Made by a program: the position numbers and the translations under genes
Shown: piece after piece, positions 11,477 to 40,744 of the stretch
Position numbering within the stretch: the first letter of the stretch is position 1
How the letters are laid out: the number at the start of each line of letters is the position of its first letter
The notes under the pieces: model-generated
What the model saw: only the letters and a program-made list of their open reading frames with translations
Told to the model about the DNA's origin: nothing
Database searches by the model: none
Source: a virus
Lineage: Duplodnaviria; Caudoviricetes
DNA: 64,000 bases
IMG/VR virus record: IMGVR_UViG_3300025640_001000
Strand: one strand, 5' to 3'

Positions 11477-13393
11477 GTGGAAAACCATAAAGTAATATGT
11501 GCAGGCTGGGTCGGTCGGTTTGGCAATAAATGTCATTCTTATTTATATGGTAAGCATATAGAAAGTAAGTTCGGATCAAAGTTTTATATTCCAAGTAGAT
11601 GGGAAGGTTGTGCAATTTTTAAGAATCCTGCTCCTGTCGCAGATACAAACTTCAGAAAGTATTCATTTGTTTACGGAGGTGGATCAAAGAACACAAATGA
11701 GTTCACACGAAATCAAAAAAAACTTGAATTATACAACACAAAGTTCAACGACAATATTGAGTTGATAGATGCGTGTGATCAAACTTCCTATGGAAATACA
11801 AATTGTGCTTATATAAGTTTAGTATCCGATGCCGATTGGTTTTTTCGTGAAGTATCTTTGGGTGATATCAAGAAGTATCTTGCGTTTAGTGATGAACTCA
11901 AACGCACGGATATGTTCAAGTATTTTGAAGATGCACAAGGAACATATGATGTAGCACATTTCAGACGAACTGATATATCAAAAAAACACTATGTCGGTGG
12001 TCATAGTATGGTCAGCAAAAAAAGTTATTATGATGCGTTCAAGAAGTTTGATGTTGATCCCAATGAAATTGTATGGGTTTCAGATGAACCATCGTATGGA
12101 TATCGTTATGAAAAAGATATTCCTATCATAAATGGTCAACGGATATCTTGGTTACCAGATTTTCTTAAACTAGTATTCTCACGAAACCACTTTCGTTCTA
12201 ACAGTTCATTTAGTGTTTGGGCTGCTTGGATCGGCAACTCTAAGGTGTATTCACCTTGGTTGCATGAATACTCACCAGGAAAAGAGATTGACTTTGACTT
12301 CGTTTTAGGTAATCATCCTCATTGGATGGCCGTAAAAGGAGTTCATACTTGTTATCAATTTAATATTAAAAACGATTTGAAAGAAACCAAAATGGATAAT
12401 GTACAAATAAAAGAAAGAGTCGCAAAACCAATTGCAGAAAAACGAAAACGAATAATGATGGTTCATTGGAATGGTCGTTTCGGAAATCGTGTATTCAGTT
12501 ATATGTTCGGAAAAAGTTATGCTGATAAATTTGATATGGATTTTTATATACCAAGTGAGTGGGAAGGAAGTCGTTTGTTTGTAGACAAAGAATACAAGAT
12601 TATTGATGATGATGAACTTAGAATGTGTGTGAATCAAACTGATCCTAATTTTGATAACATCAATTTTAGAACCAAGTCTGTTTATGCGTATAACAACAGA
12701 ACCAACTCAAACATTCAGTTTATGAATCCTGACAGAGATTCTGACTTTGGAAAAACAGATGTATTTTTTGATAGTTTGTGTATCCACAACAAACAAGTAT
12801 TTGAATCGTATTCTAAAAAGAAGATTTTAAAGTGGTTGGAATTTACTGACGAAGTTAAAAATTTGGATATCTATAAAAGACTTGAAGATAAACAAGGAAC
12901 TTACGATATTGCTCATTTAAGAAGAGATGACATCAGCAATGCAAATTACAACAAAAAAAATCCACAGGCATATAGTGTAGTTAGTAAAGAAAGTTACATT
13001 GAAGCATTCAAAAAGTTTGACTTTGATGAATCAAAGATCGAGTGGACTACCGATGATTGGACTGGTAAATGGGGTGTAGGAAAACCACAACACGGAAGTG
13101 GTGGTTGGAAATATCCAGAAGGATCAAAAGATGTACCTAATATTATATTTGATTGGTTACCTGATTTTCTGAGATTGTATTTCGCACGAAACATTTTCAG
13201 AGGTAATAGTAGTTTCAGTTGGGTTGCAGGATTTTTAAGTCCATGTGCAACTGTATATTCTCCGATATTGCATCAAAGAAAAATATACCGCAATTCATCA
13301 GACGAAACAAAATTTGAGTTTGTAGAAGGAAATTGGCCACATTGGATGAATTTAAAAGGTTCATCTTGTGACGAAATACGTATAGAAAATTAG
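11477..13393 (+). CDS. Tandem two-domain GT11 (alpha-1,2-fucosyltransferase-like) glycosyltransferase
   Basis: Two copies of GRFGN ... H(F/L)RRxD ... NSSFSxW. Confidence 0.8.
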   Translation: MENHKVICAGWVGRFGNKCHSYLYGKHIESKFGSKFYIPSRWEGCAIFKNPAPVADTNFRKYSFVYGGGSKNTNEFTRNQKKLELYNTKFNDNIELIDACDQTSYGNTNCAYISLVSDADWFFREVSLGDIKKYLAFSDELKRTDMFKYFEDAQGTYDVAHFRRTDISKKHYVGGHSMVSKKSYYDAFKKFDVDPNEIVWVSDEPSYGYRYEKDIPIINGQRISWLPDFLKLVFSRNHFRSNSSFSVWAAWIGNSKVYSPWLHEYSPGKEIDFDFVLGNHPHWMAVKGVHTCYQFNIKNDLKETKMDNVQIKERVAKPIAEKRKRIMMVHWNGRFGNRVFSYMFGKSYADKFDMDFYIPSEWEGSRLFVDKEYKIIDDDELRMCVNQTDPNFDNINFRTKSVYAYNNRTNSNIQFMNPDRDSDFGKTDVFFDSLCIHNKQVFESYSKKKILKWLEFTDEVKNLDIYKRLEDKQGTYDIAHLRRDDISNANYNKKNPQAYSVVSKESYIEAFKKFDFDESKIEWTTDDWTGKWGVGKPQHGSGGWKYPEGSKDVPNIIFDWLPDFLRLYFARNIFRGNSSFSWVAGFLSPCATVYSPILHQRKIYRNSSDETKFEFVEGNWPHWMNLKGSSCDEIRIEN

Positions 13394-13427
13394 TATAAAT
13401 ACATACAAATCAATATTTATTGATTGT

Positions 13428-14204
13428 ATGAAGATATATTTTGCATCGTATGCAACCCATGATGCTATGGGTTTCTATAAAAACCAAGATTCGTTATCGG
13501 ATCAAGCATTAATACACGGAGGTGTTAATGAAGTTATTAAGTGTCGTGGAAATGATATCAAAGACTTTCTTGATATTGCAAACGATTTTATCAAAGCAGT
13601 TGAACCTGCTAAATATCCACGAATGCACAATGCTAAGTATTACGTGTGGAAATCATATTTCATAAAGGATTGTTTAAAAAAACTCAATCATGGAGATGTA
13701 TTGATATATCACGATGCTGGTAGAAATTGTTATCCTTACAAAATTGAATGTGAACTTCGTACTTTTTGTGAGTATGTTGTAAAAAAACACAAAGGCATTT
13801 ATGTAAACTTTGGACCATTTTGCAATCGTAGATTTACAAAACGAGAATGTTTTAAAGTTATGAATTGTGATGAAAACTATTATTGGGATAGCAGACAAGC
13901 AAATGGTTCTTGGGGAATTTACGAAAAAAATGATTTATCAATTAAGTTTGTTAATGAGTGGTATGATTATTGTATGCATCCAAGTATGATAGTTACTGAT
14001 GTTGAGAATGATACCGATACATTACCAAATTACGAAGCACATCGTCACGATCAATCTATTTTGACAAATATGTTGTTGAAATATGCAAAAGAACACAACT
14101 TGCCATTAGACCCAAAACTTCAAGGTAAATTACAAAAACCACACGGATGGGAAAAGGATATGTGTCTTGCAATTTCCAACTTCAAGAAGTCGGGATTAAT
14201 ATGA
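13428..14204 (+). CDS. Nucleotide-diphospho-sugar transferase-like protein
   Basis: YYVWKSYFI, GDVLIYHDAG, HRHDQSIL motifs. Confidence 0.7.
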   Translation: MKIYFASYATHDAMGFYKNQDSLSDQALIHGGVNEVIKCRGNDIKDFLDIANDFIKAVEPAKYPRMHNAKYYVWKSYFIKDCLKKLNHGDVLIYHDAGRNCYPYKIECELRTFCEYVVKKHKGIYVNFGPFCNRRFTKRECFKVMNCDENYYWDSRQANGSWGIYEKNDLSIKFVNEWYDYCMHPSMIVTDVENDTDTLPNYEAHRHDQSILTNMLLKYAKEHNLPLDPKLQGKLQKPHGWEKDMCLAISNFKKSGLI

Positions 14205-14863
14205 GGCAACCAGAATATAATTACATTTTTATTCATGTTCCAAAGTGTGCGGGTACGAGCATTGAAAATGCACTCAAAACAAATCAAATGCAGTGGTTTG
14301 GGTACGATAGAAAAATACAAGGATTTCTTCAGCATTTAACTTGTGCAGAAATTCTAGAACATAATTTTTTAACAAAACAAGAGTTTGATAAACACTACAA
14401 GTTTGCGTTTGTAAGAAATCCATTCAGTAGGTGTGTGTCTGAATACATTTGGCGAATCAAGCAGTTTGGAAATTTCATTAACACACCAATAAATGTAACT
14501 GAACTTGGTAACAACAAGATGATAACTGCAAATGATGTTCGTCAGATTTCGTTCAAAGACTTTGTGAAAAGAAATTTTCCTTGGCAAGAAATAAGTTTTG
14601 AACAACACATGAAACCACAAATAGAATTTACACACGATAGTAATATGAATTTAATGGTGGATTATGTTGGTAAGTTTGAGAATCTAAAACAAGACTTTGA
14701 TTACGTGTGTGATTGTATTGGAATTGAAAAACGAAATCTTCCACACAACTACAAAACCAATCACACGCATTACACCGATTACTATGACGATGAAACAATA
14801 AAAATAGTATCAGAAATGTACAGAGCAGATTTAGAAATATTTAATTACACATTTGGAGACTAA
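14201..14863 (+). CDS. Sulfotransferase (Sulfotransfer_2 family)
   Basis: HVPKCAGTS 5'-PSB; FVRNPFSRCVS 3'-PB; VGKFENL. Confidence 0.88.
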   Translation: MRQPEYNYIFIHVPKCAGTSIENALKTNQMQWFGYDRKIQGFLQHLTCAEILEHNFLTKQEFDKHYKFAFVRNPFSRCVSEYIWRIKQFGNFINTPINVTELGNNKMITANDVRQISFKDFVKRNFPWQEISFEQHMKPQIEFTHDSNMNLMVDYVGKFENLKQDFDYVCDCIGIEKRNLPHNYKTNHTHYTDYYDDETIKIVSEMYRADLEIFNYTFGD

Positions 14864-14866
14864 TTT

Positions 14867-15643
14867 ATGATAAGTGAAAATCACAAATTTATTTATGTTC
14901 ACATCATTAAAACTGGTGGAACAAGTTTAGAAAAGATTTTAAAACAACGTCATCCTGTGATGATAAAACATCCTCAAAAAATACGAGGTAACGTTTTTAA
15001 TGGAATACCAAGAGCTATTCCTCATTCAAAACCTCCTGTTTACGATTTTTCGTTGGTGGGTAGACGATCTGTTGATGTTAGTGTGATTGGTGCGAAAGCA
15101 ATGTGGGAATATGAACGAGAAAAAAAGTCACACATTTCTGCAAAACAATATAAAGATTTTTTGACCAAAGAAAACCGACTTGATATTTGGAATGATTATT
15201 TTAAATTCTCTGTTGTCAGAAATCCATTTTCATATATAGTGTCGGTATTTAAAATGCTAAATGGACCATACTTTGGTCGTGGAAAAAAACAACATTATGA
15301 AAATCAAATACCATCTGAATTTCCGGAATTTGTAAAACATCTCACGGATGAACGAAATCCGTTGTTTAGAAAAGAAGATCAGCATATGTGGACGCAAACC
15401 GATTGGTTGTGTGATGTAGATGGTAATGTTTTGGTTGATAAGGTGGGAAAAATGGAAACTTTACAAAAAGACTTTGGTGAAATATGCAAGAAGTTGAATT
15501 GGGATAACATAAAAGTACCTAGAATCAACGCATCAAAAATAAAAATTCCATATACAGATTATTATACAGATGAATTAATTGAATTGGTTGGTAATTATTA
15601 TTGTAATGATCTTATAAATTTTAATTACAAATTCGGAGAATAA
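14867..15643 (+). CDS. Sulfotransferase (Sulfotransfer_2 family)
   Basis: HIIKTGGTS; VVRNPF. Confidence 0.88.
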   Translation: MISENHKFIYVHIIKTGGTSLEKILKQRHPVMIKHPQKIRGNVFNGIPRAIPHSKPPVYDFSLVGRRSVDVSVIGAKAMWEYEREKKSHISAKQYKDFLTKENRLDIWNDYFKFSVVRNPFSYIVSVFKMLNGPYFGRGKKQHYENQIPSEFPEFVKHLTDERNPLFRKEDQHMWTQTDWLCDVDGNVLVDKVGKMETLQKDFGEICKKLNWDNIKVPRINASKIKIPYTDYYTDELIELVGNYYCNDLINFNYKFGE

Positions 15644-15646: not shown

Positions 15647-16591
15647 ATGAAAACAATGAATGAAATAAATGAATTTTTGTTGCACGAAAATTATTACAAA
15701 CCAGGAGTTATGTTAAACGATCCACAACCTTTACCTGGACAATCTCAAGCAGTTTGTGTTTATCGTGAATTGCACAACAATACACTACCTGAGTTTACTA
15801 TGGTGTTACCGATTCATAATCAAGATGACATTATTGTCCGAAATATGAAAACCTATTTTCAGCACACAACTAGTTCTTATGAGTTGATTGTAATTCTTGA
15901 TAATTGCGTGGACAATACAGAACAAGAAGTAGTGAATTTATTAAAATCATTGGAAAGTAATCCTCCGTATGTCGGTGCAATGGTAATACGACAAGATACT
16001 CCAATTTATGAAACGAGTTGTGATAACATTGGATTTAGATTAGCAAGGGGTAAATATGCTTTGCAACTTCAACCTGATATGCAGATGGTTGAAACAGGAT
16101 ACAACGAAGCAATCGCACGACCTTTCAAAAAGTTTGATGATGTATTGGGTGTATCTGGAAGAGGATGTCACAAGTTTCGTCCTTGGCATGGCCCTGGAAA
16201 ACTTGGAATGAAAATGGAAAACCCACTAGAACCTCAATGGGATGCAAAACGAAATACTTTTTTTATCGGAGAAACTTGTATGAGAGGACCATTGTTGTTG
16301 CACATGGAAAAATTAAAAGTGATGAAGTATTGGGATGAGCATCATTTCTTTTTAGGCAAAGACGAACGTGATTTGTTTGCTCGTTCTTGGCATCAATTTA
16401 AATGGGTATGTGGATATGTACCGATGGAGTTTAAGAGTCCTGCGAGAGACGGTTCAACTCGCAAGAAAAAGAGTCCTCAAGACGCACATTTCAGAAAGAT
16501 TCGTCAGCAAAGATTTGGTCCTGGATTTTGGGGTGAATATATGCGTGACTATGAAACAAAAAAACGAGAAATAGAGGAACGTTCTCTGTAA
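15647..16591 (+). CDS. Glycosyltransferase family 2
   Basis: MVLPIHNQ, IVILDNCVDNT, GT-A fold. Confidence 0.8.
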   Translation: MKTMNEINEFLLHENYYKPGVMLNDPQPLPGQSQAVCVYRELHNNTLPEFTMVLPIHNQDDIIVRNMKTYFQHTTSSYELIVILDNCVDNTEQEVVNLLKSLESNPPYVGAMVIRQDTPIYETSCDNIGFRLARGKYALQLQPDMQMVETGYNEAIARPFKKFDDVLGVSGRGCHKFRPWHGPGKLGMKMENPLEPQWDAKRNTFFIGETCMRGPLLLHMEKLKVMKYWDEHHFFLGKDERDLFARSWHQFKWVCGYVPMEFKSPARDGSTRKKKSPQDAHFRKIRQQRFGPGFWGEYMRDYETKKREIEERSL

Positions 16592-17476: not shown

Positions 17477-18352
17477 GTGGAGATTGTTGATAAAAAGAAA
17501 GATAGAGTATTTGTTTTAGCCTGTGGAAAGTCGTGTGATTTAGTAAACTATTTAGACTTTTTACGTGGCGAATATGTAATCGCAGTATCACGTTGGTTAT
17601 TTTTCGATGGATATAAATTTGACTTTTATTTTGTAAACGATTCTGGTTTATTAATTAAATCTGCTAATCTTCACGGAGGTTTGTCGCAACTTAAAACATT
17701 TTGTAGTGGCAATAGTGCAAAATGGTTCAGAGATTCAGTAAAGGATAAAAATATAGAGTCGGCATTCGGACTCCAGATGGGCAATTATACATATAGAACT
17801 AATGGAATTGTAAAGTGTAGAACGAAACCAAATACAGAACCTTGGCAACTAAATGATGAAGAATTTCTAAATTCAAACGGAACGATGTCAGTTGAAAATC
17901 CATATGATCATTTTTCTCATGCAAATTTTTCTCAATATAAAATCAAAGGAACTGGATGTGGAACGGCAACTAGATGTGCAGTTGATTTGGCATATTTTCT
18001 TAAATTTAAAACTTGTTATTTAATGAACGTAGATACATTTCCGATTGAAGGAGCAGGGTACAGTAAACATATCTTAAAATATGCAGTTCCAGAAGCAAGA
18101 AGAACCACTCCATATATTAGAAATGGTTTTTTTGATGTAAGAACCTGGGGACATCGTTATACTCAATATAAAGGTATGAATTTACGAAGAGTTGTACCTG
18201 AGAATATGCTATCTCAAGAACTTGAAATCGCAAAGACTTCAAAAAAAGTGGCAAAAAATGTGGGAATGTTTAAAACTGTGTTGTATGAGAATTTGATAAA
18301 TGAAAATGAAACGGTTGAAGATTGTGTAACATATAACCACTATGTGGTCTAA
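17477..18352 (+). CDS. Maf/DUF115-like putative nonulosonic acid transferase (paralog of the previous gene)
   Basis: Co-linear similarity to 16592..17449 over the full length. Confidence 0.6.
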   Translation: MEIVDKKKDRVFVLACGKSCDLVNYLDFLRGEYVIAVSRWLFFDGYKFDFYFVNDSGLLIKSANLHGGLSQLKTFCSGNSAKWFRDSVKDKNIESAFGLQMGNYTYRTNGIVKCRTKPNTEPWQLNDEEFLNSNGTMSVENPYDHFSHANFSQYKIKGTGCGTATRCAVDLAYFLKFKTCYLMNVDTFPIEGAGYSKHILKYAVPEARRTTPYIRNGFFDVRTWGHRYTQYKGMNLRRVVPENMLSQELEIAKTSKKVAKNVGMFKTVLYENLINENETVEDCVTYNHYVV

Positions 18353-19210: not shown

Positions 19211-19858
19211 ATGGAAACTGAAAGATTTATAGAGATTAGAGGAAATAAGTTTATTTTAGACGATGAATACTTAGAATGGCATCGTAAAAACCTATATGAG
19301 TATACTCCAAAATCAAATACATTTTGCTTTCGGTGGATAAATAGACCACATAAATTTGAGATAGAAGAGCATACTCTTGTTGAAAAACATTTGCGTAGAG
19401 ACTCAAACGTGATTGATCTTGGGGGTTTTATTGGTACACTTTCATGTGCGATAAATAAGAGTTTAAAAAATCCTAATAATCATGTAGTCACGGAAATTCA
19501 TCCATTTTACACAAGATATCTACAGAAAAACAGAGATATAAATAACTGTAAATTTGAAATATTAAACAGAGTGGATAAACTAGAAGAATTAAATGTAGAT
19601 TATTTTTTTGATACAATAATTGCAGACATAGAAGGAGATGAGTTTAGATTTATACTAGATAATTTTGACTATATATCAACCCATGTTGAGTTGATAATAG
19701 TTGAGGTGCATAAACGGTATTGTGCATTACCAAGTCAACCTGAAAAAAGTAATAAAACTGTACCGATAAACTTAAGAAGACAATGTCTGGCTACACTCGA
19801 TACAAAATTTAAAAAAGTAGACTTTTTTAAGAATACATTAGTATACAGGAGAAAATAA
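19211..19858 (+). CDS. FkbM-like SAM methyltransferase
   Basis: VIDLGGFIG, IADIEGDE, IIVEVH. Confidence 0.75.
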   Translation: METERFIEIRGNKFILDDEYLEWHRKNLYEYTPKSNTFCFRWINRPHKFEIEEHTLVEKHLRRDSNVIDLGGFIGTLSCAINKSLKNPNNHVVTEIHPFYTRYLQKNRDINNCKFEILNRVDKLEELNVDYFFDTIIADIEGDEFRFILDNFDYISTHVELIIVEVHKRYCALPSQPEKSNKTVPINLRRQCLATLDTKFKKVDFFKNTLVYRRK

Positions 19859-20443
19859 ATGAAATATAAAAAATTATATGACGAATTATATGAAAATGGG
19901 TATCATTCTAATTTTAAAACAAACCACACAAAACATTTGTATGCCTATGTTGATAAATTTATCGGTCCGGCCGGCAAAGTTTTGGATGTAGGATGTTCAC
20001 ATGGAACGGCAGTTTACCATCTTAATAAACGTGGATACGACTCGCATGGAATAGACATTTCATCCGTTGCCATAGAATTGTGCAATAAACGCAAAATTAA
20101 AAATTGTAAAGTAAGTTCTGTTGCAAATATAGATTATGATGATCAGTACTTTGACGGTCTAGTATCGTCTGATACATTTGAACATCTAGACCCATCTGAA
20201 ATTGAATCGGCATTACTAGAATGCAACCGAGTTCTAAAAAAGGGAGGAGTTGGAATTATGCTAATTGCCACACGAAAGGAGGTGAACCGACATTATGATT
20301 TCGTTGCAAAAAAATATGGATTAACTAATTTGCATACATCTATCTTTAATGCAGAAGATTGGACAAATAAAATAAAATCAGTATTTCCTTTTCTTGAGGT
20401 AATAGTCAAAAAACGAGGAGCTATTTTCATTTTTAAAAAATGA
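19859..20443 (+). CDS. Class I SAM-dependent methyltransferase
   Basis: VLDVGCSHG, GIDIS, FEHL, RVLKKGG. Confidence 0.88.
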   Translation: MKYKKLYDELYENGYHSNFKTNHTKHLYAYVDKFIGPAGKVLDVGCSHGTAVYHLNKRGYDSHGIDISSVAIELCNKRKIKNCKVSSVANIDYDDQYFDGLVSSDTFEHLDPSEIESALLECNRVLKKGGVGIMLIATRKEVNRHYDFVAKKYGLTNLHTSIFNAEDWTNKIKSVFPFLEVIVKKRGAIFIFKK

Positions 20444-21075
20444 AAACAATATCTCTGATTCTTGCCCGTGGTGGTAGTAAAGGTATTCCAAATAAAAACA
20501 TAATTGATTTAAATGGAAATCCGTTACTTTATTACACGACAAATGCTTCATTAAATTCTAATGTTAATGAGACATGGGTAAGCACAGATTGTGATAAAAT
20601 AAAAAAAATTGCACAGAATATCGGTTGTAAAGTTATTGATCGTCCAAAAGAAATTTCTGGTGACAATAGCAAAAGTGATGAAGCACTTGTTCATTTTGCT
20701 GAAAATGTAGATTTTGATATTTTGGTATTTATACAACCAACATCTCCTTTACTTAAATCGTCTGACATAAACAAGGGACTAAAGAAGATGCAAAACTATG
20801 ATTCAGTCTTTAGTGTAACAAAAGAGCATTGGATTCCAAGGTGGAATGAAAATGGTGAACCTGTCAACTGGAATATCAACGATAGGCCTATGCGACAAGA
20901 TGTAAAAGAAACTTATATTGAAAATGGTGCATTTTACATTACAACTAAAAAGCAATTGTTGAATTCAAAATTAAGATACGGTGGAAACATCGGAATGGTT
21001 GAAATGCCATTACACAGAAGTTTTCAAATTGATACGATGGATGATTTAAAATTAATTGGAAAATTATTAAAGTGA
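20440..21075 (+). CDS. neuA: Acylneuraminate cytidylyltransferase
   Basis: LARGGSKGIPNKN, VSTD, QPTSP, ENGAFY, QIDT. Confidence 0.93.
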   Translation: MKTISLILARGGSKGIPNKNIIDLNGNPLLYYTTNASLNSNVNETWVSTDCDKIKKIAQNIGCKVIDRPKEISGDNSKSDEALVHFAENVDFDILVFIQPTSPLLKSSDINKGLKKMQNYDSVFSVTKEHWIPRWNENGEPVNWNINDRPMRQDVKETYIENGAFYITTKKQLLNSKLRYGGNIGMVEMPLHRSFQIDTMDDLKLIGKLLK

Positions 21076-28605: not shown

Positions 28606-28641
28606 ACGTAGATATTTAGATTTCACCGATATTTATTATTG

Positions 28642-30122: not shown

Positions 30123-30936
30123 AACATTTGTAGTTAATTTAGATGATAAAATTCATCGTTACGATTTATTTCGTAATTTACCGAATGTAGAAAGACAACG
30201 TGCGGTGGATTCACGAATTAATTGGTTTGTTTACGAAGATTACAAACTTTCATTGAATCCATGTGGACGAAACACTATTCAATATTTTACGCAATCAAAA
30301 GGAGCAGTTGGGTGTTATCTTAGTCATTATGAAATATGGAGCAAGGTATTAGCAAATAATTACGAGTGGACGTTAATTCTTGAAGATGATGCGAGCATTC
30401 ACGATGCCGAAAGATATGTTTGTAATTATATTGAAATTGAAGATGATGTTGATTTAATTCAATTTAACGATAGAACTCAGCATGGTGATTTGCAAAATTA
30501 TTTTAATGGCACAACTGCATATTTACTGAACCAACGAGCAGCTAAAATTTTATTTGATTCAACACATGAGTTTTCACATTTTAACGAAAATCCAAGTGAA
30601 CTTCTTGAATGGAGAATAAACAAGCACAATTTATATACTTGCTCTTACATTTATGATAATGAAACGAGAACCGAGTGTCTGAAAATACCAAATTCAATAC
30701 GAGTCGCAGTTGATAAACACATTGGATACAATTCGTTTTACTCACTTCCGTCTGACAAAAAAATAAAAATAAAGTTTGATCCAAGAATTAAAATATATGA
30801 AACTAACATCAAGTCGGATGTAACTGGAAACGAAAAACCATTTTATGAAATGAATTGCGAAGAACTTGCTCAGTTAGAAAACAGAAAAGATTTTAAGTGG
30901 TGGGAAAAACCAAATGAATTTAAAAAGAGCATTTAA
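30100..30936 (+). CDS. Glycosyltransferase family 25 (paralog)
   Basis: VVNLD, GCYLSH, LILEDDA, GTTAYLL. Confidence 0.85.
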   Translation: MKTISINKTFVVNLDDKIHRYDLFRNLPNVERQRAVDSRINWFVYEDYKLSLNPCGRNTIQYFTQSKGAVGCYLSHYEIWSKVLANNYEWTLILEDDASIHDAERYVCNYIEIEDDVDLIQFNDRTQHGDLQNYFNGTTAYLLNQRAAKILFDSTHEFSHFNENPSELLEWRINKHNLYTCSYIYDNETRTECLKIPNSIRVAVDKHIGYNSFYSLPSDKKIKIKFDPRIKIYETNIKSDVTGNEKPFYEMNCEELAQLENRKDFKWWEKPNEFKKSI

Positions 30937-31921
30937 AAACGAACCATCCGATAATTCTATTGTATTGATATGTGTTCTGAGGGACGAAATATTATTACTT
31001 CCTTATTTCATTGAGTATTATACGAAAATGGGAGTTTCACATTTTATATTCGTAGATAACGATTCAATAGACGATTCACAAAAGTATTTGTGCGAACATC
31101 CGTTTGAAAATATAAAAGTTTATCACACCGATGAAGAGTATTCAAAAAATTTATATGGTGTATCTTGGGTAAACGAAATTTTAAATGTTCAACTCAAAAA
31201 CAAATGGTGTATAGTAGTTGACGTAGATGAATTGATTCAACCCAAAGATAAAATCAACCTCTCACACCTCAGAGCAAATATGCAAAATTCAAATGCAAAT
31301 ATTTTAGTTACCTGCTTATTGGACTTTTATCCATCTAAATTAAATGAGAAAATATACGAATCAGGAACTCCGTTTCAAGAGCATTCAGATATGTTTGATA
31401 AAATGAATGATGACAATGTTTTTTATGCAATTCAAAATGATGGAGTTGTAACTATAAAAGGAGGACTGCGTCATAGATTGCTTAATTCACACAATAAACC
31501 AAGCAATAATTCGGTGTGTTTAACGAAAAAAACTTTTTTTAAATACGATTTTTATGAAACTCATCATTTATCCGAAGGATGTCATTGGTTGATGCCAAAC
31601 AATTTTATAGATTGGTTACATCCTGATAACAACAAACTTTGGAAATCAACAAACAAATTTTTAAGGTTTTATGAAAATTTGCAAATTCTTGGTCATTTTA
31701 AATACCTCAAACCAAACGTGTTTGAATATTTTGAAGAAAGAGTGAACCGCAATCAAGATTGGGACGGTGGAATCAGAGTCACATCTGGATCAATTGAGTA
31801 CCAGACATATATTGAAAATAAGTCGGAAAAAATGGAAGACGTCACCACCAGTGAAATGTATAACCACAACCATGATGATTTATACGAAAAAACTTTGAAT
31901 AACGTTCTGAAAAAATTATAA
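30914..31921 (+). CDS. Glycosyltransferase family 2 (Glyco_tranf_2_4-like)
   Basis: LRDE..LPYFIEYY..GV..FIFVDNDSID; WCIVVDVDE; HFKY. Confidence 0.85.
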   Translation: MNLKRAFKNEPSDNSIVLICVLRDEILLLPYFIEYYTKMGVSHFIFVDNDSIDDSQKYLCEHPFENIKVYHTDEEYSKNLYGVSWVNEILNVQLKNKWCIVVDVDELIQPKDKINLSHLRANMQNSNANILVTCLLDFYPSKLNEKIYESGTPFQEHSDMFDKMNDDNVFYAIQNDGVVTIKGGLRHRLLNSHNKPSNNSVCLTKKTFFKYDFYETHHLSEGCHWLMPNNFIDWLHPDNNKLWKSTNKFLRFYENLQILGHFKYLKPNVFEYFEERVNRNQDWDGGIRVTSGSIEYQTYIENKSEKMEDVTTSEMYNHNHDDLYEKTLNNVLKKL

Positions 31922-33794: not shown

Positions 33795-34394
33795 ATGATA
33801 AACGATAAGCATAAGTTTATCTTTGTAAGAGTTACTAAAACTGCATCAACTTCTATAACTGATTGTTTAGAAAAAAGTGTAAAATTGGACTCATATAAAT
33901 GGTCAGTTGTCCAACTAGAAATAAAAGAAAAATGGCAGGATGACGAGAATCATATTCCGATGTGGTTCATAGAAGAAAATATTTCTGATAAAAAGTTTAA
34001 ATCTTACTTTAAATTTTCGTTTGTAAGAAATCCATTTGACAAGTTAGTATCAGCATATGGGTATGATATAAATTGGCATTGCAAGAATAAAATAAAAAAT
34101 GATAATTTAGATACCTTTGCTAGATATATTAAAAGTGGTTTTGGGACACGATTGAAAAACTCATCACAGTATGATTTTACATATGGATGTGATTTCATCG
34201 GAAGATTTGAAAACCTTCAAGAAGACATCAATGTTGTCTGCGACAAAATTAAAATTCCACAACAACAACTTCCACATAAAAACAAATCAAAACACAAATC
34301 TTACAGTGAATACTACGATGACGAAACAAAGCAAATTGTTGCGGAAAAATTCGCAAAAGACATTGAGTATTTCGGTTATGAATTTGGAGAATAG
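33795..34394 (+). CDS. Sulfotransferase (Sulfotransfer_2 family)
   Basis: RVTKTASTS; FVRNPFDKLVS; IGRFENL; FGYEFGE end. Confidence 0.88.
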   Translation: MINDKHKFIFVRVTKTASTSITDCLEKSVKLDSYKWSVVQLEIKEKWQDDENHIPMWFIEENISDKKFKSYFKFSFVRNPFDKLVSAYGYDINWHCKNKIKNDNLDTFARYIKSGFGTRLKNSSQYDFTYGCDFIGRFENLQEDINVVCDKIKIPQQQLPHKNKSKHKSYSEYYDDETKQIVAEKFAKDIEYFGYEFGE

Positions 34395-34396: not shown

Positions 34397-34999
34397 ATGA
34401 AAAAATATACAATTACAAAATCGAAAGAAAGCAAGTATGTTTGGTTTCAAATAGCAAAAAATGCGTCGCGTACGACTGTCAATTATTTAAATGAAAACAC
34501 AAAGGTAGACTTTGGATTTCCACTCTACCTTAACAAAGATGCTGGATATCAAAAACCATATGAAAGTGAATATGATGACTATTTTAAATTTACAATAGTT
34601 AGAAATCCGTGGGATAGAATTTTAAGTTTTTATTTAAATAAAATACATGGCAAAGATGTGTACACAGAAAATTATTCCAGTTTTTCTGAATGTAAAACAC
34701 TTAGAGATACTATTTCAATATTAATGACAAAAAATCTTAAAGATTGTGATGTTCATTATCAACTACAAATCGAATGCTTTCCATCTGATAATATTGACTT
34801 TATAGGTCGTTTCGAAAACCTCCAACACGACTTCAATATAATCTGCGACAAAATCGGAATTCCACGACAACAACTTCCACACAAAAACAAAACAAAACAC
34901 AAACACTACACAGAATATTACGATGATGAAACTCGTCAAATTGTTGCAGAAAGATATGCACAGGACATTGAGTATTTCGGATATAAATTTGGAGAGTGA
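34397..34999 (+). CDS. Sulfotransferase (Sulfotransfer_2 family)
   Basis: IAKNASRT; IVRNPWDRILS; FGYKFGE end. Confidence 0.88.
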   Translation: MKKYTITKSKESKYVWFQIAKNASRTTVNYLNENTKVDFGFPLYLNKDAGYQKPYESEYDDYFKFTIVRNPWDRILSFYLNKIHGKDVYTENYSSFSECKTLRDTISILMTKNLKDCDVHYQLQIECFPSDNIDFIGRFENLQHDFNIICDKIGIPRQQLPHKNKTKHKHYTEYYDDETRQIVAERYAQDIEYFGYKFGE

Positions 35000-35002: not shown

Positions 35003-35596
35003 ATGATTATATCTAAAAAACATAATTTTATTTATATTGCAGTTTCTAAAACAGGATCGACGTCGATACATAAAGCATTTTCAAATTTAGATGATGAAAC
35101 ACTTTTTATTGAAAAAGAAAATGAAGATAATAAAGATAGAGTTAATAAATTTATATATAAACATATTAAAGCAACTGACTTAAAAAAACAAATTGAAAAC
35201 TATGATGAACATTTTAAGTTTTCTTTCGTTAGAAATCCATATGATAGAGCTGTGTCTTGGGTTTACTATTATTATAGAAACAGAAAGATTAATTTAGATG
35301 AACACTCCTTTAAAGAATTAATTTTTAAATTCCCAGACTGGATATGGACCGGCCAACATGAGTTTCTATTTGAAGATAATAAAAATTCAATGAATTTTGT
35401 AGGTAAAGTTGAAAACTTCCAACAAGACTTCAACATAATCTGCGACAAAATTGGAATTCCAAAACAAGAACTTCCACACAAAAACAAAACAAAACATAAA
35501 CACTACACCGAATACTACGATAAAGAAACAAAACAAATTGTTGCAGAAAAATACAGGAAAGACATTGAGTATTTCGGATATGAATTTGGAGAATAA
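35003..35596 (+). CDS. Sulfotransferase (Sulfotransfer_2 family)
   Basis: AVSKTGSTS; FVRNPYDRAVS; FGYEFGE end. Confidence 0.88.
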   Translation: MIISKKHNFIYIAVSKTGSTSIHKAFSNLDDETLFIEKENEDNKDRVNKFIYKHIKATDLKKQIENYDEHFKFSFVRNPYDRAVSWVYYYYRNRKINLDEHSFKELIFKFPDWIWTGQHEFLFEDNKNSMNFVGKVENFQQDFNIICDKIGIPKQELPHKNKTKHKHYTEYYDKETKQIVAEKYRKDIEYFGYEFGE

Positions 35597-35599: not shown

Positions 35600-36259
35600 G
35601 TGAATATATTTGAAGAAATGATTAATAAAACTGGAAAATCTAAAGATTTTTTTTTCATTCAGATAGGATCAAATGATGGAGTTCGAAACGATCCGTTATA
35701 CAAGTTTATCTGTAAATTTAATTGGTCTGGTATCTGTGTAGAACCTGTTCCTTATTTATATAATAAATTGCAAAAACTTCATGTGATGCGTAAAAATATT
35801 AGTTGCAGGAATGTTGCAGTTTCCTCCACTGGTGGTAATATGACTTTTTATTATATTAAAGAAAACCAACACGACCAAACAGACTGGGCGAGTGGTAACG
35901 GCCTGGGTTCTTTTAATAAAGAAATAGTAATGAAACATCAAAACGGAGTGTATGACTTTGATGATAATTTTTCTAAGATGGAGGTTAAGACGATTACATT
36001 TAGTGACTTAACTAGTGGTGTACCTAAAATTGATTTACTTCATATTGATGCAGAGGGGTATGATTTTGAAATAATTAAAACAATAGATTTTACTAAAACA
36101 ATACCTTCATTTATTTTGTTTGAACATAAGTGGTTAGATGATAAAAATGAAGTTTATGAATTTTTAAAAGAACATAAATATAAATGCTTAGACTTAAACA
36201 ATAAGTCGGATACACTTGCAATACACGAAGATTGCAAGCTTGCAGAGTACAATCGATGA
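35600..36259 (+). CDS. FkbM family methyltransferase
   Basis: QIGSNDG, VEP, IDLLHIDAEGYD, FEH. Confidence 0.88.
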   Translation: MNIFEEMINKTGKSKDFFFIQIGSNDGVRNDPLYKFICKFNWSGICVEPVPYLYNKLQKLHVMRKNISCRNVAVSSTGGNMTFYYIKENQHDQTDWASGNGLGSFNKEIVMKHQNGVYDFDDNFSKMEVKTITFSDLTSGVPKIDLLHIDAEGYDFEIIKTIDFTKTIPSFILFEHKWLDDKNEVYEFLKEHKYKCLDLNNKSDTLAIHEDCKLAEYNR

Positions 36260-36969
36260 AAAAGGCAATTTACCAACTTACTATAAAACCATTAGAGTTT
36301 ACTGACATACGAAATAAAAAACAGGAATTCGAAGTAACCCGATGTATACCTACTGTGGTCGAGTATGCAAAAAATGTAAATGCAGATTATATAATGTTAA
36401 ACGAGGATAATCTACCGAGTTGGGTTCTAAATGAAATTATAAAAAAAGATGGTAGTTATGTAAGAGCATTGATTGCCAAATGTTTGTTATTTAAGGTATG
36501 GGCATCAACTGAATATGATCAAATTTTGTTTTTAGATAATGATATCCAAGTAATTGGAGAACGTGACATATTTAATGAAAATTTTGACATAGCAACTCGT
36601 CACTATGAAAAAATTAGACAAGACCGTGCGACTAAATACTTTGGTCGTCCAATGACCCCGTGTAATACCGCGGTCATGGTAATGAATAAAGAATATATTA
36701 AAAAGTTATCAAAAATAAAATTTAATTGGGAAGAGATGTTGAAAAAATGCCATGAATATAAAGGTAAAGTTGGCGAACGATACTTTAGTGGATATTTAGG
36801 TGAGTTTTTTTATATGCATTGTCTAGATGAATTAAAAACTAAACCAGTGGATTTATCTGTTGATAAATGGACTAAAGATTATATAGGATATAAATACAAT
36901 CCGAATTTCTTCAAAGATATTTCAGAATATAATTTTATTCACTGGGTTGGCACAGAATATTTAAAATAA
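36256..36969 (+). CDS. GT-A glycosyltransferase (GT8/GT34-like)
   Basis: YAKNVNADY, YDQILFLDNDI, NTAVMV, FIHWVG. Confidence 0.7.
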   Translation: MKKAIYQLTIKPLEFTDIRNKKQEFEVTRCIPTVVEYAKNVNADYIMLNEDNLPSWVLNEIIKKDGSYVRALIAKCLLFKVWASTEYDQILFLDNDIQVIGERDIFNENFDIATRHYEKIRQDRATKYFGRPMTPCNTAVMVMNKEYIKKLSKIKFNWEEMLKKCHEYKGKVGERYFSGYLGEFFYMHCLDELKTKPVDLSVDKWTKDYIGYKYNPNFFKDISEYNFIHWVGTEYLK

Positions 36970-38990: not shown

Positions 38991-39006
38991 GTTTTTATAA
39001 AAACTC
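38988..39006 (+). repeat. 19-nt direct repeat, copy 2
   Basis: TAAGTTTTTATAAAAACTC, begins at the ald stop codon. Confidence 0.85.
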
Positions 39007-39061
39007 TCCCTTCTCCATATTTATAGTTGGAGATTTTGTGATTTATTGTAAGGGAGAGTTG

Positions 39062-39295
39062 ATGATGGAATATGAAGTAATTGATACTTTTGGTAATCGA
39101 GTTATTGGTGTATACGAAACGAGGGATGCCGCGATATATGCAATTAGATTGTATTGTGTACAAAAGATGATGAACAAGGTGAGTTTGTTTGACCAAGACT
39201 TTGTGAATCTTGTTGAAAACGGAACTGAGATAACATATGAAAACCCACTTGGTTATTTCCCCACAAAACCAAAGTTTTTATTAAACGAAGTATGA
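39062..39295 (+). CDS. Hypothetical protein
   Basis: GGGAG SD, ATGA overlap with next gene. Confidence 0.55.
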   Translation: MMEYEVIDTFGNRVIGVYETRDAAIYAIRLYCVQKMMNKVSLFDQDFVNLVENGTEITYENPLGYFPTKPKFLLNEV

Positions 39296-39855
39296 TAAGT
39301 CATACCCACAATTTTATTTTTATTCACATTCCCAAAACAGGAGGATCTTCAGTTGATGATGTATTGAAGAAGTATGTAAGGCGATGGGTTCTGCATGAAT
39401 ATGTATATCCAGATGCAGTACATAAAGCAGAAAAACGCAACGGATTCAAAAACTATTTTTCGTTTTGCTTTGTTAGAAATCCGTGGGATAAAATAGTTTC
39501 TCAGTATCATTTTAATCGGGATAAGTTCGGCATGACGGATTATACGTTTGACGAATATGTTCATGCGTTCAATGAAGGCAAAAGAATTTCTTGGTTTAAT
39601 CCGGACTTTTTGTCATGGATGACTGACGATGACGGTAATATGCTTATGGACTTTGTAGGAAGGTTTGAAAAATTGCAGGAAGATTTTGATTATGTATGTG
39701 ACCAAATTAAAATTCCAAAACAAGAACTTCCACATCACGTTAAAACTGAAAACAGAACACATTATACAGAATACTATAACGAAGAAACAAAGCAAATAAT
39801 TGCGGAAAAATACATGAACGACATCGAGTATTTCGGGTATGAATTTGGAATCTGA
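39292..39855 (+). CDS. Sulfotransferase (Sulfotransfer_2 family)
   Basis: HIPKTGGSS; FVRNPWDKIVS; FGYEFGI end. Confidence 0.9.
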   Translation: MISHTHNFIFIHIPKTGGSSVDDVLKKYVRRWVLHEYVYPDAVHKAEKRNGFKNYFSFCFVRNPWDKIVSQYHFNRDKFGMTDYTFDEYVHAFNEGKRISWFNPDFLSWMTDDDGNMLMDFVGRFEKLQEDFDYVCDQIKIPKQELPHHVKTENRTHYTEYYNEETKQIIAEKYMNDIEYFGYEFGI

Positions 39856-39856
39856 T

Positions 39857-40744
39857 ATGATCACTCATAGTATGGCATATACATTGCACACATTTGGGTC
39901 ATTTCATAAGATATATTTCTCGGTTTGGTTTGCAGATGATGATACCGATTTACCAATGCATATCAAAACTATATTAAAATGGAATGCCAAGTGCTTGATA
40001 AAATTTAACATTCCTCTTGTAGTTTTATATACAGGAACAAAAGTTGGAAATACATTAAACAAACTACATAAAAATGTTTTGAGTATCAATGCTACATCTT
40101 ATATGAAAAATGAGTTGTCGGTTGCATTAACAAACACTTACACAAACGAACGAACTACTCCAGACGAATTTGAGATAATGTGCTATCAACGATTTATAGT
40201 TGCATCTCACATATTTAAAAAAACAAACACTCAATTAACTCATCTTGATTGTGACTTTATGATCACACGTGATTTGTTGCATGAGGTAGAATCAACATCA
40301 ATGAGTTGTGATATTAAATCATTCGGCACAGGATGTACTCCGTGTGTTTGGTTCAATGGAGTTCAGCAACTTGAAAACTTTTGCAATTACTTTTCAGAAA
40401 GTCCACAAAAATGTGACATGATTGCTTTGCAAAAATACATTGAAGAAATTCCTGTGCATTTTGAAAAAATTTTGTTGCATGAGCAGTTTCGTAAGTATTT
40501 AAAAAATAACGCATTTCCATCTTATTCAATTCGTGCTAAAATCGGAAAAATATGTAAATTATACAACATTGACATTCCTTCGGATAAAACAGACAAACAT
40601 TTTTTAAAACAGATATCAAATTTTTTTGAGTTTGATAAGTTTTCTATTCGGATGAATGAAGAGAGTGTTCCATTTATTCACTTTCAGGGTTGGTCACGTG
40701 GACTTGCAAAATATATTTTTAAACATTCTCCGTTGACATTGTAA
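39857..40744 (+). CDS. Putative glycosyltransferase
   Basis: CYQRF, HLDCD (DxD), CDM, IHFQG. Confidence 0.55.
   Translation: MITHSMAYTLHTFGSFHKIYFSVWFADDDTDLPMHIKTILKWNAKCLIKFNIPLVVLYTGTKVGNTLNKLHKNVLSINATSYMKNELSVALTNTYTNERTTPDEFEIMCYQRFIVASHIFKKTNTQLTHLDCDFMITRDLLHEVESTSMSCDIKSFGTGCTPCVWFNGVQQLENFCNYFSESPQKCDMIALQKYIEEIPVHFEKILLHEQFRKYLKNNAFPSYSIRAKIGKICKLYNIDIPSDKTDKHFLKQISNFFEFDKFSIRMNEESVPFIHFQGWSRGLAKYIFKHSPLTL

Follow-up and report, generated by a model that had tools for sequence, protein, structure and literature searches.

A Marine Megaphage Island of Putative Sulfotransferases, Sialic-Acid-Type Donor Enzymes and Glycosyltransferases

Introduction

What would a tailed phage make with some thirty sugar-modifying enzymes, and on what would it put the product? 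The question is raised by a 64,000-nt stretch of viral DNA (Duplodnaviria; Caudoviricetes; IMG/VR record IMGVR_UViG_3300025640_001000), referred to here at its whole length as the window, in which genes for glycosyltransferases (GTs), sulfotransferases, methyltransferases and nonulosonate synthesis span positions 11477-40744 in two blocks (11477-22625 and 28642-40744). The original prediction, made from the letters and a list of open reading frames (ORFs), placed these blocks correctly and saw in them a phage-encoded system for a complex anionic glycan; the family searches reported below uphold an enzyme set that could make such a glycan with nonulosonate, sulfate and methyl groups. Together, about thirty soluble phage enzymes could build sulfated, sialic-acid-like-capped chains. 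We read the island, tentatively and with slightly less than even confidence, as a phage-encoded line for glycan assembly and decoration that would work in the cytoplasm of the infected cell, its acceptors being the phage's own adhesins, O-glycosylated on Pro/Thr/Ser linkers.

What sets the island apart from the glycan islands known in large marine viruses is the combination of six predicted sulfotransferases, a predicted complete sialic-acid-type donor route and four enzymes with a predicted sialyltransferase fold. Sulfated, sialic-acid-like-capped glycan chemistry has not yet been shown for any phage, and a full-text literature search of limited coverage found no published account of phage-encoded sialylation or glycan sulfation. 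All coordinates are positions in the window, genes are named by their start coordinates, and Pfam was run on 69 window ORFs (34 of the span and 35 of its flanks). The sources PMC1079782, PMC5811610, PMC10117803, PMC11625862, PMC12619734 and PMC12801897 are cited for the parts of their text that were available.

A Predicted Nonulosonate Donor Route

The NeuB, NeuA and haloacid dehalogenase (HAD) genes named in the original prediction are all present (Table 1). NeuB 18342 is a short form, with a NeuB domain at residues 38-268 and no second domain detected by Pfam, and its top match in the PDB, 6ncs (2.4e-31), is likewise a short form of 290 aa. NeuB sensu stricto has a C-terminal SAF/antifreeze-like domain. 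The cytidine monophosphate (CMP)-nonulosonate synthetase 20440 is closest in the PDB to mouse CMP-N-acetylneuraminic acid (Neu5Ac) synthetase (1qwj, 1.1e-33, residues 5-201), and its PseF score of 112.9 bits lies below the cut-off of 205.7. The small phosphatase 21692 matches the capsule-biosynthesis phosphatase family TIGR01689 (2.7e-6) and, in the PDB, the 'capsule biosynthesis protein' 9iqw (2.3e-14).

The sugar-6-phosphate route, which leads from N-acetylmannosamine 6-phosphate or mannose 6-phosphate to Neu5Ac or Kdn in animal and in Bacteroides/haptophyte pathways, needs a synthase, a phosphatase and a synthetase. Since the three genes match these needs, their putative product is a CMP-activated sialic-acid-type sugar, Neu5Ac or Kdn rather than pseudaminic or legionaminic acid (Pse/Leg); the window has no upstream enzyme of NeuC or Pse/Leg type. 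The NeuB-family synthase would condense phosphoenolpyruvate with a host hexose(amine) 6-phosphate, the HAD phosphatase would take off the 9-phosphate, and the CMP-sialate-synthetase-like enzyme would activate the resulting nine-carbon acid sugar. An inorganic pyrophosphatase gene (44105) outside the span might conceivably help by pulling the CMP-sugar reaction forward. The term 'sialylated', used in the original prediction, is too specific, because NeuB 18342 falls below the equivalog cut-offs of NCBIfam for both Neu5Ac synthase (TIGR03569, 201.7 against 399.65 bits) and PseI (133.9 against 340.25 bits).

Enzymes With a Predicted Sialyltransferase Fold

Four enzymes, two Maf/CstII-like and two GT29-like, could add the activated sugar to acceptor chains. 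The first pair, 16592 and its paralogue 17477, belongs to a very narrow family, with eight proteins matching at E<=0.001 in a set of 5.8 billion. An AlphaFold model of 16592 built from a nine-sequence alignment reached a predicted local distance difference test score (pLDDT) of 75.3 and a predicted template modelling score (pTM) of 0.81. Foldseek ranked Campylobacter CstII and Cst-I first (E 2.6e-4), and VIA-align gave Z-scores of 9.4 for Maf 5mu5 (root-mean-square deviation 3.5, 175 residues), 8.6 for the MptE kinase, 8.5 for human ST8SiaIII, 8.0 for CstII, 7.5 for ST6GalNAc2 and about 4 for generic Rossmann proteins. The modelled fold class is thus clear, with Maf-type and sialyltransferase-type scores tied; by sequence, both proteins score below the cut-off of 34.6 bits for PF01973, the MptE-like/Maf_flag10 family (17.9 bits for 16592 and 12 for 17477). 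In the cytoplasm, Maf O-glycosylates proteins with nonulosonates.

The second pair is of GT29 type. Gene 21927 matches the GT29 profile over positions 59-270 of 272, and its sialyl-motif-L region aligns to human ST6Gal1 (E 1.8e-6). The divergent 21072 has no BLAST similarity to 21927 and no Pfam match; a profile of this protein and its two full-length homologues nevertheless aligned with 21927 and six GT29-like phage proteins at 95.3% in hhalign (E 2.1e-8, 136 columns). Those two homologues and one partial match were its only relatives in the 5.8-billion set. Animal GT29 enzymes have a type II membrane anchor and work in the Golgi lumen; neither 21927 nor 21072 has a hydrophobic segment, and both resemble a soluble, minimal form. 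BLAST is too weak a tool for this family: tblastn with the GT29 gene gave no match at E<=0.01 among GenBank phages, although a hidden Markov model (HMM) detects five GT29 genes in one of them, LR756508.1, discussed below. PHROGs v4 holds no family that matches NeuB, the CMP-synthetase, 21927, 21072 or 16592/17477 at E<=0.05, although it does include a sulfotransferase family, phrog_3347.

Sulfotransferases and Methyltransferases

All six sulfotransferases that had been proposed were recovered by family search, at 55-90 bits against the Sulfotransfer_2 (PF03567) cut-off of 22 (E 1.5e-14 to 3.4e-25), with their donor motifs kept. In their alignment the lysine of the 5'-phosphosulfate loop and the proline and serine of the 3'-phosphate motif are invariant in six of six, and the arginine position of that motif holds Arg in three, Lys in two and Tyr in one; a conserved Lys and a P-x-x-R-x-x-S motif are given for PF03567 in a 2024 review (PMC11625862). 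They are putatively dependent on 3'-phosphoadenosine-5'-phosphosulfate (PAPS) and would act on sugar hydroxyls. Each is 29-39% identical to the first of the set.

Four of the six (those at 33795-35596 and 39292-39855) share a near-identical C-terminal stretch of about 60 residues, GRFENLQ.DF..(I/V)CDKI.IP.Q.LPH...TEYY..ET.QI.AE.(Y/F)..DIEYFGY.FG, while their N-terminal halves are divergent. A constant donor side joined to a variable acceptor side could account for this, as could cassette recombination. Relatives of sulfotransferase 5 are abundant: 2156 of 2216 candidate proteins match at E<=1e-5, nearly all of them unnamed metagenome proteins with a few listed from Tara, and among the 120 matches listed five carry the automatic JGI name 'chondroitin 4-sulfotransferase 11'. 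Members of this short sulfotransferase family abound in metagenomes.

The count of three S-adenosylmethionine (SAM) methyltransferases holds for two firm cases, 19859 and the FkbM-family 35600; the third, 19211, is weak, with both of its matches below the cut-offs. In the last step of the proposed line the six PAPS-dependent sulfotransferases and these two or three methyltransferases would decorate the chain, the former placing sulfate on different positions or acceptors and the latter capping hydroxyls.

Other Glycosyltransferase Candidates

The chains themselves would be made by GT25, GT2-type and other GT-A enzymes together with a two-module fucosyltransferase-like protein. About 13 GT-like genes had been counted; 13 candidates can indeed be listed, of which ten have some support (six from HMM matches, four from a fold, profile or structure lead) and three, 13428, 28639 and 36232, have none. 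The two-module protein 11477 is an internal tandem duplication of two modules of about 310 aa, 42% identical, each with GRFGN, H-x-R-R-x-D-I-S and NSSFS motifs, and its H-x-R-R-x-D motif may be fucosyltransferase-like (GT11/GT23-type). It had no Pfam match at E<=5 and only a chance match (E 0.74) in a profile search of PDB sequences, and neither IMG/VR nor, by tblastn, the GenBank phages yielded a relative; a fold model from a two-sequence alignment was unusable (pLDDT 31.7). For 13428, which has no Pfam or PHROG match, the nearest ESM Atlas clusters are viral 'putative glycosyltransferase' proteins, and the named families (GT34, DUF1647, TOD1_MUCI70) are mutually inconsistent. The orphan 36232 drew four matches at E<=0.001, itself included, in an exhaustive HMMER search of 1.84 billion representatives. 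The Atlas model of 39839 (pTM 0.81) aligns with viral clusters of the PF03407 family Nucleotid_trans at template modelling scores of 0.57-0.67, one row being name-worthy. When nine proteins were compared by hhalign with nine local GT alignments, the only match above 50% beyond the self-control was that of 21072 with GT29, and nothing was found for 13428, 28639, 36232, 39839 or either half of 11477; these queries were single sequences and the comparison had low power.

The adjacent GT25 enzymes (29286 and 30100) both score above the profile cut-off. In the PDB, 30100 comes closest, over a short stretch only, to procollagen galactosyltransferase 1 (9.1e-5) and to Mimivirus R655 (3.2e-3). The tail fibre at 3024-5096 has about a dozen Gly-X-Lys-Gly sites in its collagen repeats, and the GT25 pair (29286-30936) could glycosylate that fibre; no lysyl hydroxylase was found in the window.

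A different possibility is hypermodification of DNA, in which some or all of them would glycosylate modified bases of the phage genome as a defence against restriction. Phage GTs classically modify DNA, and diverse DNA glycans have been reported (Pyle et al., 2024, as cited in PMC12619734). Nearby genes of nucleotide metabolism include a C5-cytosine methylase-like gene (7825), the dNMP kinase at 41265, two deoxyribosyltransferase-like genes and a NUDIX gene. Yet the window holds no hydroxymethylase or other base modifier that would create an acceptor for sugar, and some thirty enzymes far exceed the known systems of DNA glycosylation. We know of no DNA substrate for sialyltransferase-fold enzymes or carbohydrate sulfotransferases, and regard this explanation as very unlikely.

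Gene Order, Linkage and a Related Island

There is little space between the genes, and stops and starts overlap; the probable start of sulfotransferase 1 (ATG 14201) overlaps the stop of 13428, and that of 21927 (ATG 21990) overlaps the stop of the HAD gene. The long ORFs are almost all plus-strand, and every gene chosen here except a helicase is on one strand. The second block is, in addition to its glycan genes, broken up by a LamG protein (31979-33787), a full-length tmRNA (37385-37796) and an alanine dehydrogenase (37899-38990), and the span is also interrupted by the opposite-strand helicase and a GMP reductase. For the tmRNA, ARAGORN gave the unusual tag AEAEFSALEEAEAVLVA.

Linkage of the nonulosonate genes was followed in 38 viral NeuB loci (37 from IMG/VR and that of LR756508.1) with local HMMs over up to 10 kb on each side, many loci ending at contig edges so that the counts are lower bounds. 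Within this distance of NeuB a CMP-synthetase was found at 28 of 38 loci, a HAD gene at 25, a GT29-like gene at 3, a sulfotransferase at 2 and a GT25 gene at 1. The NeuB, HAD and CMP-synthetase genes travel together across marine viral contigs, and at one IMG/VR locus, whose NeuB is 76% identical, the module adjoins a T4 gp15-like tail-sheath stabiliser. Gene 21072 varies as a unit: in two runs of marine RNA libraries, contigs from related strains (identity about 90-95%) join 21071 directly to 21698 and lack exactly this gene, which shows whole-gene presence or absence between strains inside the island.

A homologous island lies at about 305-327 kb of LR756508.1, an uncultured huge phage of 484,177 bp whose record is without annotation. 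Pfam and BLAST identified in it a GT4 gene, a cytidylyltransferase, five GT29 genes, two GT25 genes, three sulfotransferases, a GT10 fucosyltransferase, a GDP-mannose 4,6-dehydratase with an epimerase/reductase, methyltransferases, a HAD gene and a NeuB 48% identical to 18342. It shares with the window NeuB, HAD, CMP-synthetase, GT29, GT25, Sulfotransfer_2 and methyltransferase genes, all on one strand; it differs in its five GT29 genes, three sulfotransferases, GT10, GDP-fucose and GT4 genes and in having no Maf/CstII-like pair in the 40 kb examined. The whole record contains no APS kinase, ATP sulfurylase, Bac_transf or Wzx/Polysacc_synt gene, whereas the same searches match in 5 to 13 of 14 control genomes. 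After the island (28836-35128 of the extracted region) stand eight consecutive ORFs of 217-285 aa that have no Pfam match and may be a paralogous family.

These observations bear on whether the genes form one pathway at all. They might instead make up a hypervariable island in which sugar-modifying genes, each acquired independently, serve several unrelated targets (proteins, host glycans, small molecules), as the interruptions by helicase, GMP reductase, tmRNA and alanine dehydrogenase, the strains lacking 21072, the nonulosonate genes that mostly travel without sulfotransferases (2/38 loci) or GT29-like genes (3/38), and the several members that are orphans or nearly so would suggest. We consider this improbable, given that the distant LR756508.1 repeats the combination of GT29, GT25, sulfotransferase, NeuB, HAD, CMP-synthetase and methyltransferase genes and that the window genes are packed with overlapping stops and starts.

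A short motif recurs at gene starts. TATTTAT is in modest excess in the window, with 43 copies against 30.0 +/- 4.9 in shuffled sequence (43 was reached in 2 of 100 shuffles), and is strongly linked to gene starts: 15 of the 32 plus-strand copies have their end at most 30 nt ahead of a listed start, a placement open to 3.2% of positions. Its usual form is ATATTTAT(A), placed 3-10 nt ahead of the ATG, and in this form it stands upstream of the starts at 1914, 13428, 17477, 24663, 28639, 37899, 43019, 44645, 46399, 56188, 62636 and 63213. The original prediction had noted TATTTAT before several glycan genes; this is so for 13428, 17477 and 28639, which make up three of the five start-linked copies (among 15) inside the span, but the motif is not specific to glycan genes. 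As ATATTTAT also precedes LamG 24663, the alanine dehydrogenase, a deoxyribosyltransferase-like gene, the pyrophosphatase and adhesin genes, it is better taken as a general start signal of this phage. Many genes that follow an intergenic gap have ATATTTAT(A) so close to the start codon that a Shine-Dalgarno sequence would not fit between them; the motif could therefore act in starting translation, or as the promoter of mRNAs with a very short leader or none. Sigma-70-type promoters showed no enrichment in the window (87 vs 93.6 +/- 8.9 and 68 vs 63.6 +/- 7.9); terminator-like hairpins were mildly enriched (17 vs 8.3 and 12 vs 6.3), mostly on the non-coding strand or within genes.

Table 1. Features of the window and the evidence for each; coordinates are window positions, and E-values are given after the family name.
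Feature	Coordinates	Strand	Evidence or remark
Tail fibre, collagen-repeat and endosialidase-chaperone (S74) domain	3024-5096		PF01391 3.3e-28; PF13884 1.5e-14; tail-fibre PHROGs down to 1.9e-45
Two-module GT-like protein, 638 aa	11477..13393	+	phrog_2644 'glycosyltransferase' 2.9e-8, residues 10-256
Candidate GT-A-like GT, 258 aa, preceded by ATATTTAT	13428..14204	+	ESM Atlas feature leads only
Predicted sulfotransferase 1	14147..14863	+	PF03567 3.4e-25; phrog_3347 6.2e-29
Predicted sulfotransferase 2	14867..15643	+	PF03567 1.4e-20; Lys and RNP..S present, Tyr replaces motif Arg
Probable GT2-like GT	15647..16591	+	PF00535 5.5e-4, 20.3 bits, below cut-off 23.3; weak NCBIfam glycosyltransferase matches
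Sialyltransferase/Maf-fold transferase (predicted), 285 aa	16592..17449	+	Fold model
Paralogue of 16592, preceded by ATATTTAT	17477..18352	+	53-54% identity to 16592; phmmer 5e-99
NeuB-family nonulosonate(-9-phosphate) synthase, short form, 287 aa	18342..19205	+	PF03102 7.5e-60, 202.8 bits vs cut-off 22.1
Possible SAM methyltransferase, weak	19211..19858	+	TRM5/TYW2 1.4e-3 and FkbM-family 1.6e-4, both below cut-offs
SAM methyltransferase, firm	19859..20443	+	Methyltransf_11 1.1e-17
CMP-nonulosonate synthetase	20440..21075	+	CTP_transf_3 (PF02348) 4.8e-27, 95.6 bits vs 22.6
Divergent GT29-like transferase, 207 aa	21072..21695	+	hhalign
Small HAD phosphatase, 102 aa	21692..22000	+	phrog_1238 2.7e-29
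GT29 sialyltransferase-family enzyme, soluble	21927..22625	+	PF00777 1.7e-16, 60.8 bits vs cut-off 23
LamG adhesin-like protein	24663..27053	+	Laminin_G_3 2.8e-20; Pro/Thr/Ser-rich runs at residues 437-471 and 713-796
Candidate GT-A GT, preceded by ATATTTAT	28639..29289	+	Galactosyl_T (GT31) E 0.023, below cut-off; no PHROG
GT25 GT	29286..30122	+	PF01755 4.5e-15, 56.5 bits vs 24; phrog_2835 6.9e-10
GT25 GT	30100..30936	+	PF01755 1.5e-15, 58.1 bits vs 24
GT2_4/GT92-like GT	30914..31921	+	PF13704 1.9e-19; PF01697 2.3e-6
LamG-domain protein, 602 aa	31979..33787	+	Laminin_G_3 2e-9
Predicted sulfotransferase 3	33795..34394	+	PF03567 2.7e-19; donor motifs present
Predicted sulfotransferase 4	34397..34999	+	PF03567 8.5e-20; donor motifs present
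Predicted sulfotransferase 5	35003..35596	+	PF03567 2.3e-20
FkbM-family methyltransferase, firm	35600..36259	+	PF05050 4.3e-17; TIGR01444 5.5e-14
Orphan protein, GT candidate of the original prediction	36232..36969	+	No Pfam or PHROG match
tmRNA, full-length, inside second block	37385-37796		RF00023, 122.8 bits
Predicted sulfotransferase 6	39292..39855	+	PF03567 1.5e-14; donor motifs present
Probable GT-A nucleotide-sugar transferase-like protein	39839..40744	+	ESM Atlas structure lead; no Pfam match by sequence
T4-type clamp-loader A subunit	start 40774		PF16790 4.8e-7; phrog_225 6.6e-18
dNMP kinase	start 41265		Variant P-loop
Inorganic pyrophosphatase, cellular-type auxiliary gene outside the span	44105..44629	+	PF00719 6e-52
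HNH endonuclease	start 55673		

Phage Adhesins or the Host Envelope as Possible Acceptor

Where the glycan would go is the weakest step of the proposed line. The candidate acceptors are adhesin or fibre proteins with Pro/Thr/Ser-rich linkers, which would be glycosylated before or during virion assembly: LamG 24663, with its two such runs, and a 2453-aa RCC1/FG-GAP/LamG protein at 48239-55600, outside the span, which carries two PT runs. The N-terminus of 24663 (residues 7-138) resembles that of the 48239 protein (27% identity, E 6e-5), which it has in turn in common with 46399, so these adhesin-like proteins share a head module. LamG 31979 ends 7 nt upstream of three consecutive sulfotransferase genes. 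The outcome would be a negatively charged, protease-resistant coat like the Mimivirus fibril and the virion glycans of mycobacteriophages.

Several considerations favour a phage adhesin as acceptor: the island sits among fibre and adhesin genes (3024, 24663, 48239), 24663 shares its N-terminal module with a large adhesin family, virions assemble in the cytoplasm, where soluble enzymes act, the top structural neighbour of 16592 is Maf (tied with sialyltransferases), and virus-made virion glycans have precedents. We also count on this side that the nearest solved relatives of GT25 30100 include procollagen galactosyltransferase 1, by its name a protein GT, and Mimivirus R655. No membrane segment was found in any cluster enzyme and no multi-pass membrane protein in the island; nor do the 69 window ORFs include a family of flippases, ABC exporters, polymerases, priming phosphoglycosyl transferases or oligosaccharyltransferases. 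The original prediction was right that flippase, polymerase and PAPS synthase are missing here, and it took these absences to favour cytoplasmic protein glycosylation over a capsule. Soluble cytoplasmic enzymes agree with that argument, which is nonetheless weaker than it was made, since cores of the lipooligosaccharide (LOS) type need neither flippase nor polymerase.

It is here that remodelling of the host envelope has to be weighed. On this account the enzymes would extend or decorate the LOS or lipopolysaccharide (LPS) core, capsule or O-antigen intermediates of the host at the inner membrane face, with host transporters exporting the product, and could give superinfection exclusion, keep progeny off debris or alter recognition by grazers. 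GT25 enzymes, a CstII-like transferase, NeuB and a CMP-synthetase are the constituents of the sialylated LOS loci of Campylobacter, Neisseria and Haemophilus. In LOS, soluble GT25, GT42 and NeuB-pathway enzymes assemble the outer core on lipid A-core, and the housekeeping MsbA/Lpt machinery of the host exports it, so that such loci use the same enzyme types with no dedicated flippase or polymerase. The loci of Campylobacter jejuni, Neisseria and Haemophilus thus resemble the window in their soluble GT25-type galactosyltransferases, NeuB, CMP-synthetase, CstII-type fold and work at the cytoplasmic face without a flippase; unlike it, they are cellular, have NeuC and heptosyl and Kdo core enzymes, and lack sulfotransferases and GT29, while the HAD phosphatase of the window points to a phosphorylated-sugar route instead of NeuC. 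Further in favour of the envelope are the two copies of a family named for LPS biosynthesis, the capsule-biosynthesis phosphatases that are the nearest named relatives of the HAD protein, and the long-standing reading of the P-SSM2 'LPS genes' (PMC1079782) and the S-SCSM2R cell-wall genes (PMC12801897), a reading never demonstrated for those phages. Against this, the window encodes no lipid-A, Kdo, heptose or undecaprenyl-linked step, it is doubtful that a lytic phage would profit from changing the surface, the neighbours of the island are adhesin and fibre genes and not early ones, and Sulfotransfer_2 occurs in none of 14 control genomes, so the chemistry need not match a host glycan. We hold envelope remodelling, the main rival reading, to be possible but on balance unlikely.

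The preferred reading, assembly on phage adhesins, has its own points to answer. The glycan target is putative and the enzyme roles are assigned by family, three of the 13 GT candidates being unverified. The virion location and structural role of both LamG proteins are likewise putative. The original prediction described LamG proteins with Ser/Thr/Pro linkers, which is true of 24663; 31979, which lies within the island, has no such run, and the 40 kb examined around the LR756508.1 island contain no Pro/Thr/Ser-rich protein (maximum 11 of 20 residues). LOS-type remodelling of the host envelope would account equally well for soluble enzymes and for the lack of a flippase, and GT25 is a family named for LPS biosynthesis. 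ATATTTAT also stands before nucleotide-metabolism genes and is therefore no mark of late or structural expression of the island. Finally, Pfam found no PAPS-synthesis family (APS_kinase, ATP-sulfurylase) among the window ORFs, and the exact Walker-A pattern occurs in the window only in ClpB and, by chance, in the 2453-aa protein, leaving no extra kinase candidate. PAPS would then come, like the common nucleotide sugars, from the host or from genes elsewhere in a genome of about 0.5 Mb. All of these weigh against adhesin glycosylation.

A bolder form of the same idea is that the megaphage, while in the bacterial cytoplasm, coats its own fibres and adhesins with sulfated, methylated O-glycans capped by a sialic-acid-type sugar, a chemistry like that of animal mucins made by minimal soluble GT29, CMAS-like and CHST-like enzymes, and that the coat would serve as a shield or as a ligand for host glycan uptake. 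We think this doubtful. The related suggestion of food mimicry, in which the glycan would act as bait for the host, found no support.

Phage Setting and Distribution

Phage marker genes flank and separate both blocks (Table 1). The GC content, per 2-kb window, is uniform at 0.30-0.39, and the proteins of the window are listed on a contig of 492,783 bp, giving a genome of at least that length. Megablast of 21.5 kb of the window found no near match among 50,697 GenBank phage records, and a scan of IMG/VR with an exact 40-mer gave 0 matches. In sequencing data, the 8.6-kb stretch 14000-22600 was present in whole or part in 20 of 24 run rows from 15 studies (2014-2024), all marine metagenomes except one labelled simply 'metagenome'; all sampled words of the stretch were present in nine rows, among which the source itself may be. 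Contigs in two metatranscriptome libraries of one study cover 30/30 and 29/30 bins of 11400-31399; as these are related strains and DNA carry-over is possible, they are no evidence of transcription.

We read the window as part of a huge, recurrent, uncultured marine phage. That bacterial or eukaryotic glycan genes were joined to phage DNA by the assembler is conceivable insofar as Sulfotransfer_2, GT29 and the CMAS-like synthetase appear eukaryote-like; such a chimera is hardly credible, however, with phage genes flanking and separating both blocks (3024, 40774, 41265, 55673), uniform GC, one coding strand except for the helicase, the long contig, recurrence in 15 studies and the same gene combination in independent phages.

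Auxiliary genes of cellular type occur in and around the island, among them the GMP reductase (27060-28118; NF003966, 337.8 bits against a cut-off of 344), the alanine dehydrogenase (37899-38990; TIGR00518, 475 bits) and a full ClpB-type disaggregase (60090-62615). The alanine dehydrogenase was used as a probe for the host. Among the best 80 of its 598 confirmed relatives, the top one (64% identity) lies on a 6,415-bp contig in a metagenome-assembled genome labelled Verrucomicrobiota, and the remainder (49-62%) come from Firmicutes, Bacteroidota, Campylobacterota, Planctomycetota and others. That short contig may itself come from a related phage and have been binned with a bacterium. Because the phyla are mixed, no host was called, and the polysaccharide-degrading host assumed in the original prediction gained no support.

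Comparison With Known Glycan Systems

Capsule and O-antigen loci that depend on Wzx/Wzy or ABC transport encode a priming transferase, a flippase or exporter and a polymerase, none of which is among the 69 ORFs of the window. LR756508.1, presumably, derives from the huge-phage paper. The main text of that paper (PMC7162821) does not contain the terms glycosyl, sialic, sulfotransferase, polysaccharide or capsule, and that of a marine megaphage paper (PMC9723777) does not contain glycosyl, sialic or sulfo(transferase).

Among large marine phages, the 24 putative 'LPS genes' of P-SSM2, arranged as two clusters, were suggested to change the surface of the host (PMC1079782), and S-SCSM2R was described with 22 cell-wall genes including 13 glycosyltransferases (PMC12801897). 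As far as the available text of these sources goes, both resemble the window in placing many soluble GTs of putative function (GT25, GT2, fucosyltransferase families) beside structural and auxiliary genes. They differ in carrying nucleoside diphosphate (NDP)-sugar epimerases and dehydratases and Kdo genes, whereas the window has no NDP-sugar enzyme; the available text of both names no sulfotransferase and no sialic acid pathway, and neither term occurs in PMC12801897, against the six predicted sulfotransferases, the NeuB/HAD/CMP-synthetase trio and the four sialyltransferase-fold enzymes here.

Eukaryotic viruses offer the nearest likeness for sulfation. In the Megavirinae (Moumouvirus australiensis, Cotonvirus, Tupanvirus), virus-encoded clusters hold GTs, sugar-synthesis genes, methyltransferases and a predicted sulfotransferase, as the window does, and these clusters are host-independent and proposed to decorate the virion fibrils (PMC10117803, PMC11625862). 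Their single sulfotransferase is paired with a bifunctional sulfate adenylyltransferase/APS kinase of their own, sulfation being predicted (PMC10117803), and in the available text they have bacterial-type amino sugars and no sialylation module. The window, in contrast, belongs to a tailed phage with six predicted sulfotransferases and no PAPS-synthesis gene of its own in that stretch.

Among phages, mycobacteriophage GTs glycosylate their own capsid and tail-tube subunits in the cytoplasm (Freeman et al., 2023, as summarised in PMC12619734). There, according to the part of that summary available, few GTs are present per phage, acid sugars and sulfate are absent and the host is actinobacterial; in the window the target is putative. 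The GT29 enzymes have prokaryotic counterparts in the bacterial sialyltransferase-like proteins described by Petit et al. (2018, PMC5811610), which are, like those of the window, prokaryote-side members of an otherwise eukaryotic family; those are bacterial, and the word 'virus' is absent from the main text of that paper as available.

Significance

Glycan islands of large marine phages have been known since 2005, none with a demonstrated product, and the island in this window is a concrete, testable case. Its small soluble GT29-like, CstII/Maf-like and sulfotransferase enzymes could serve as tools for glyco-engineering. If its product is on the virion, virus-made glycan coats would extend from giant viruses and mycobacteriophages to marine megaphages, and sulfate and sialic-acid-like sugars would join the surface chemistry of phages, with a bearing on adsorption, particle stickiness, grazing and viral decay in the sea. 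Should the mucin-like coat prove true, a sulfated and a sialylated glycoprotein would each be known from a phage particle for the first time.

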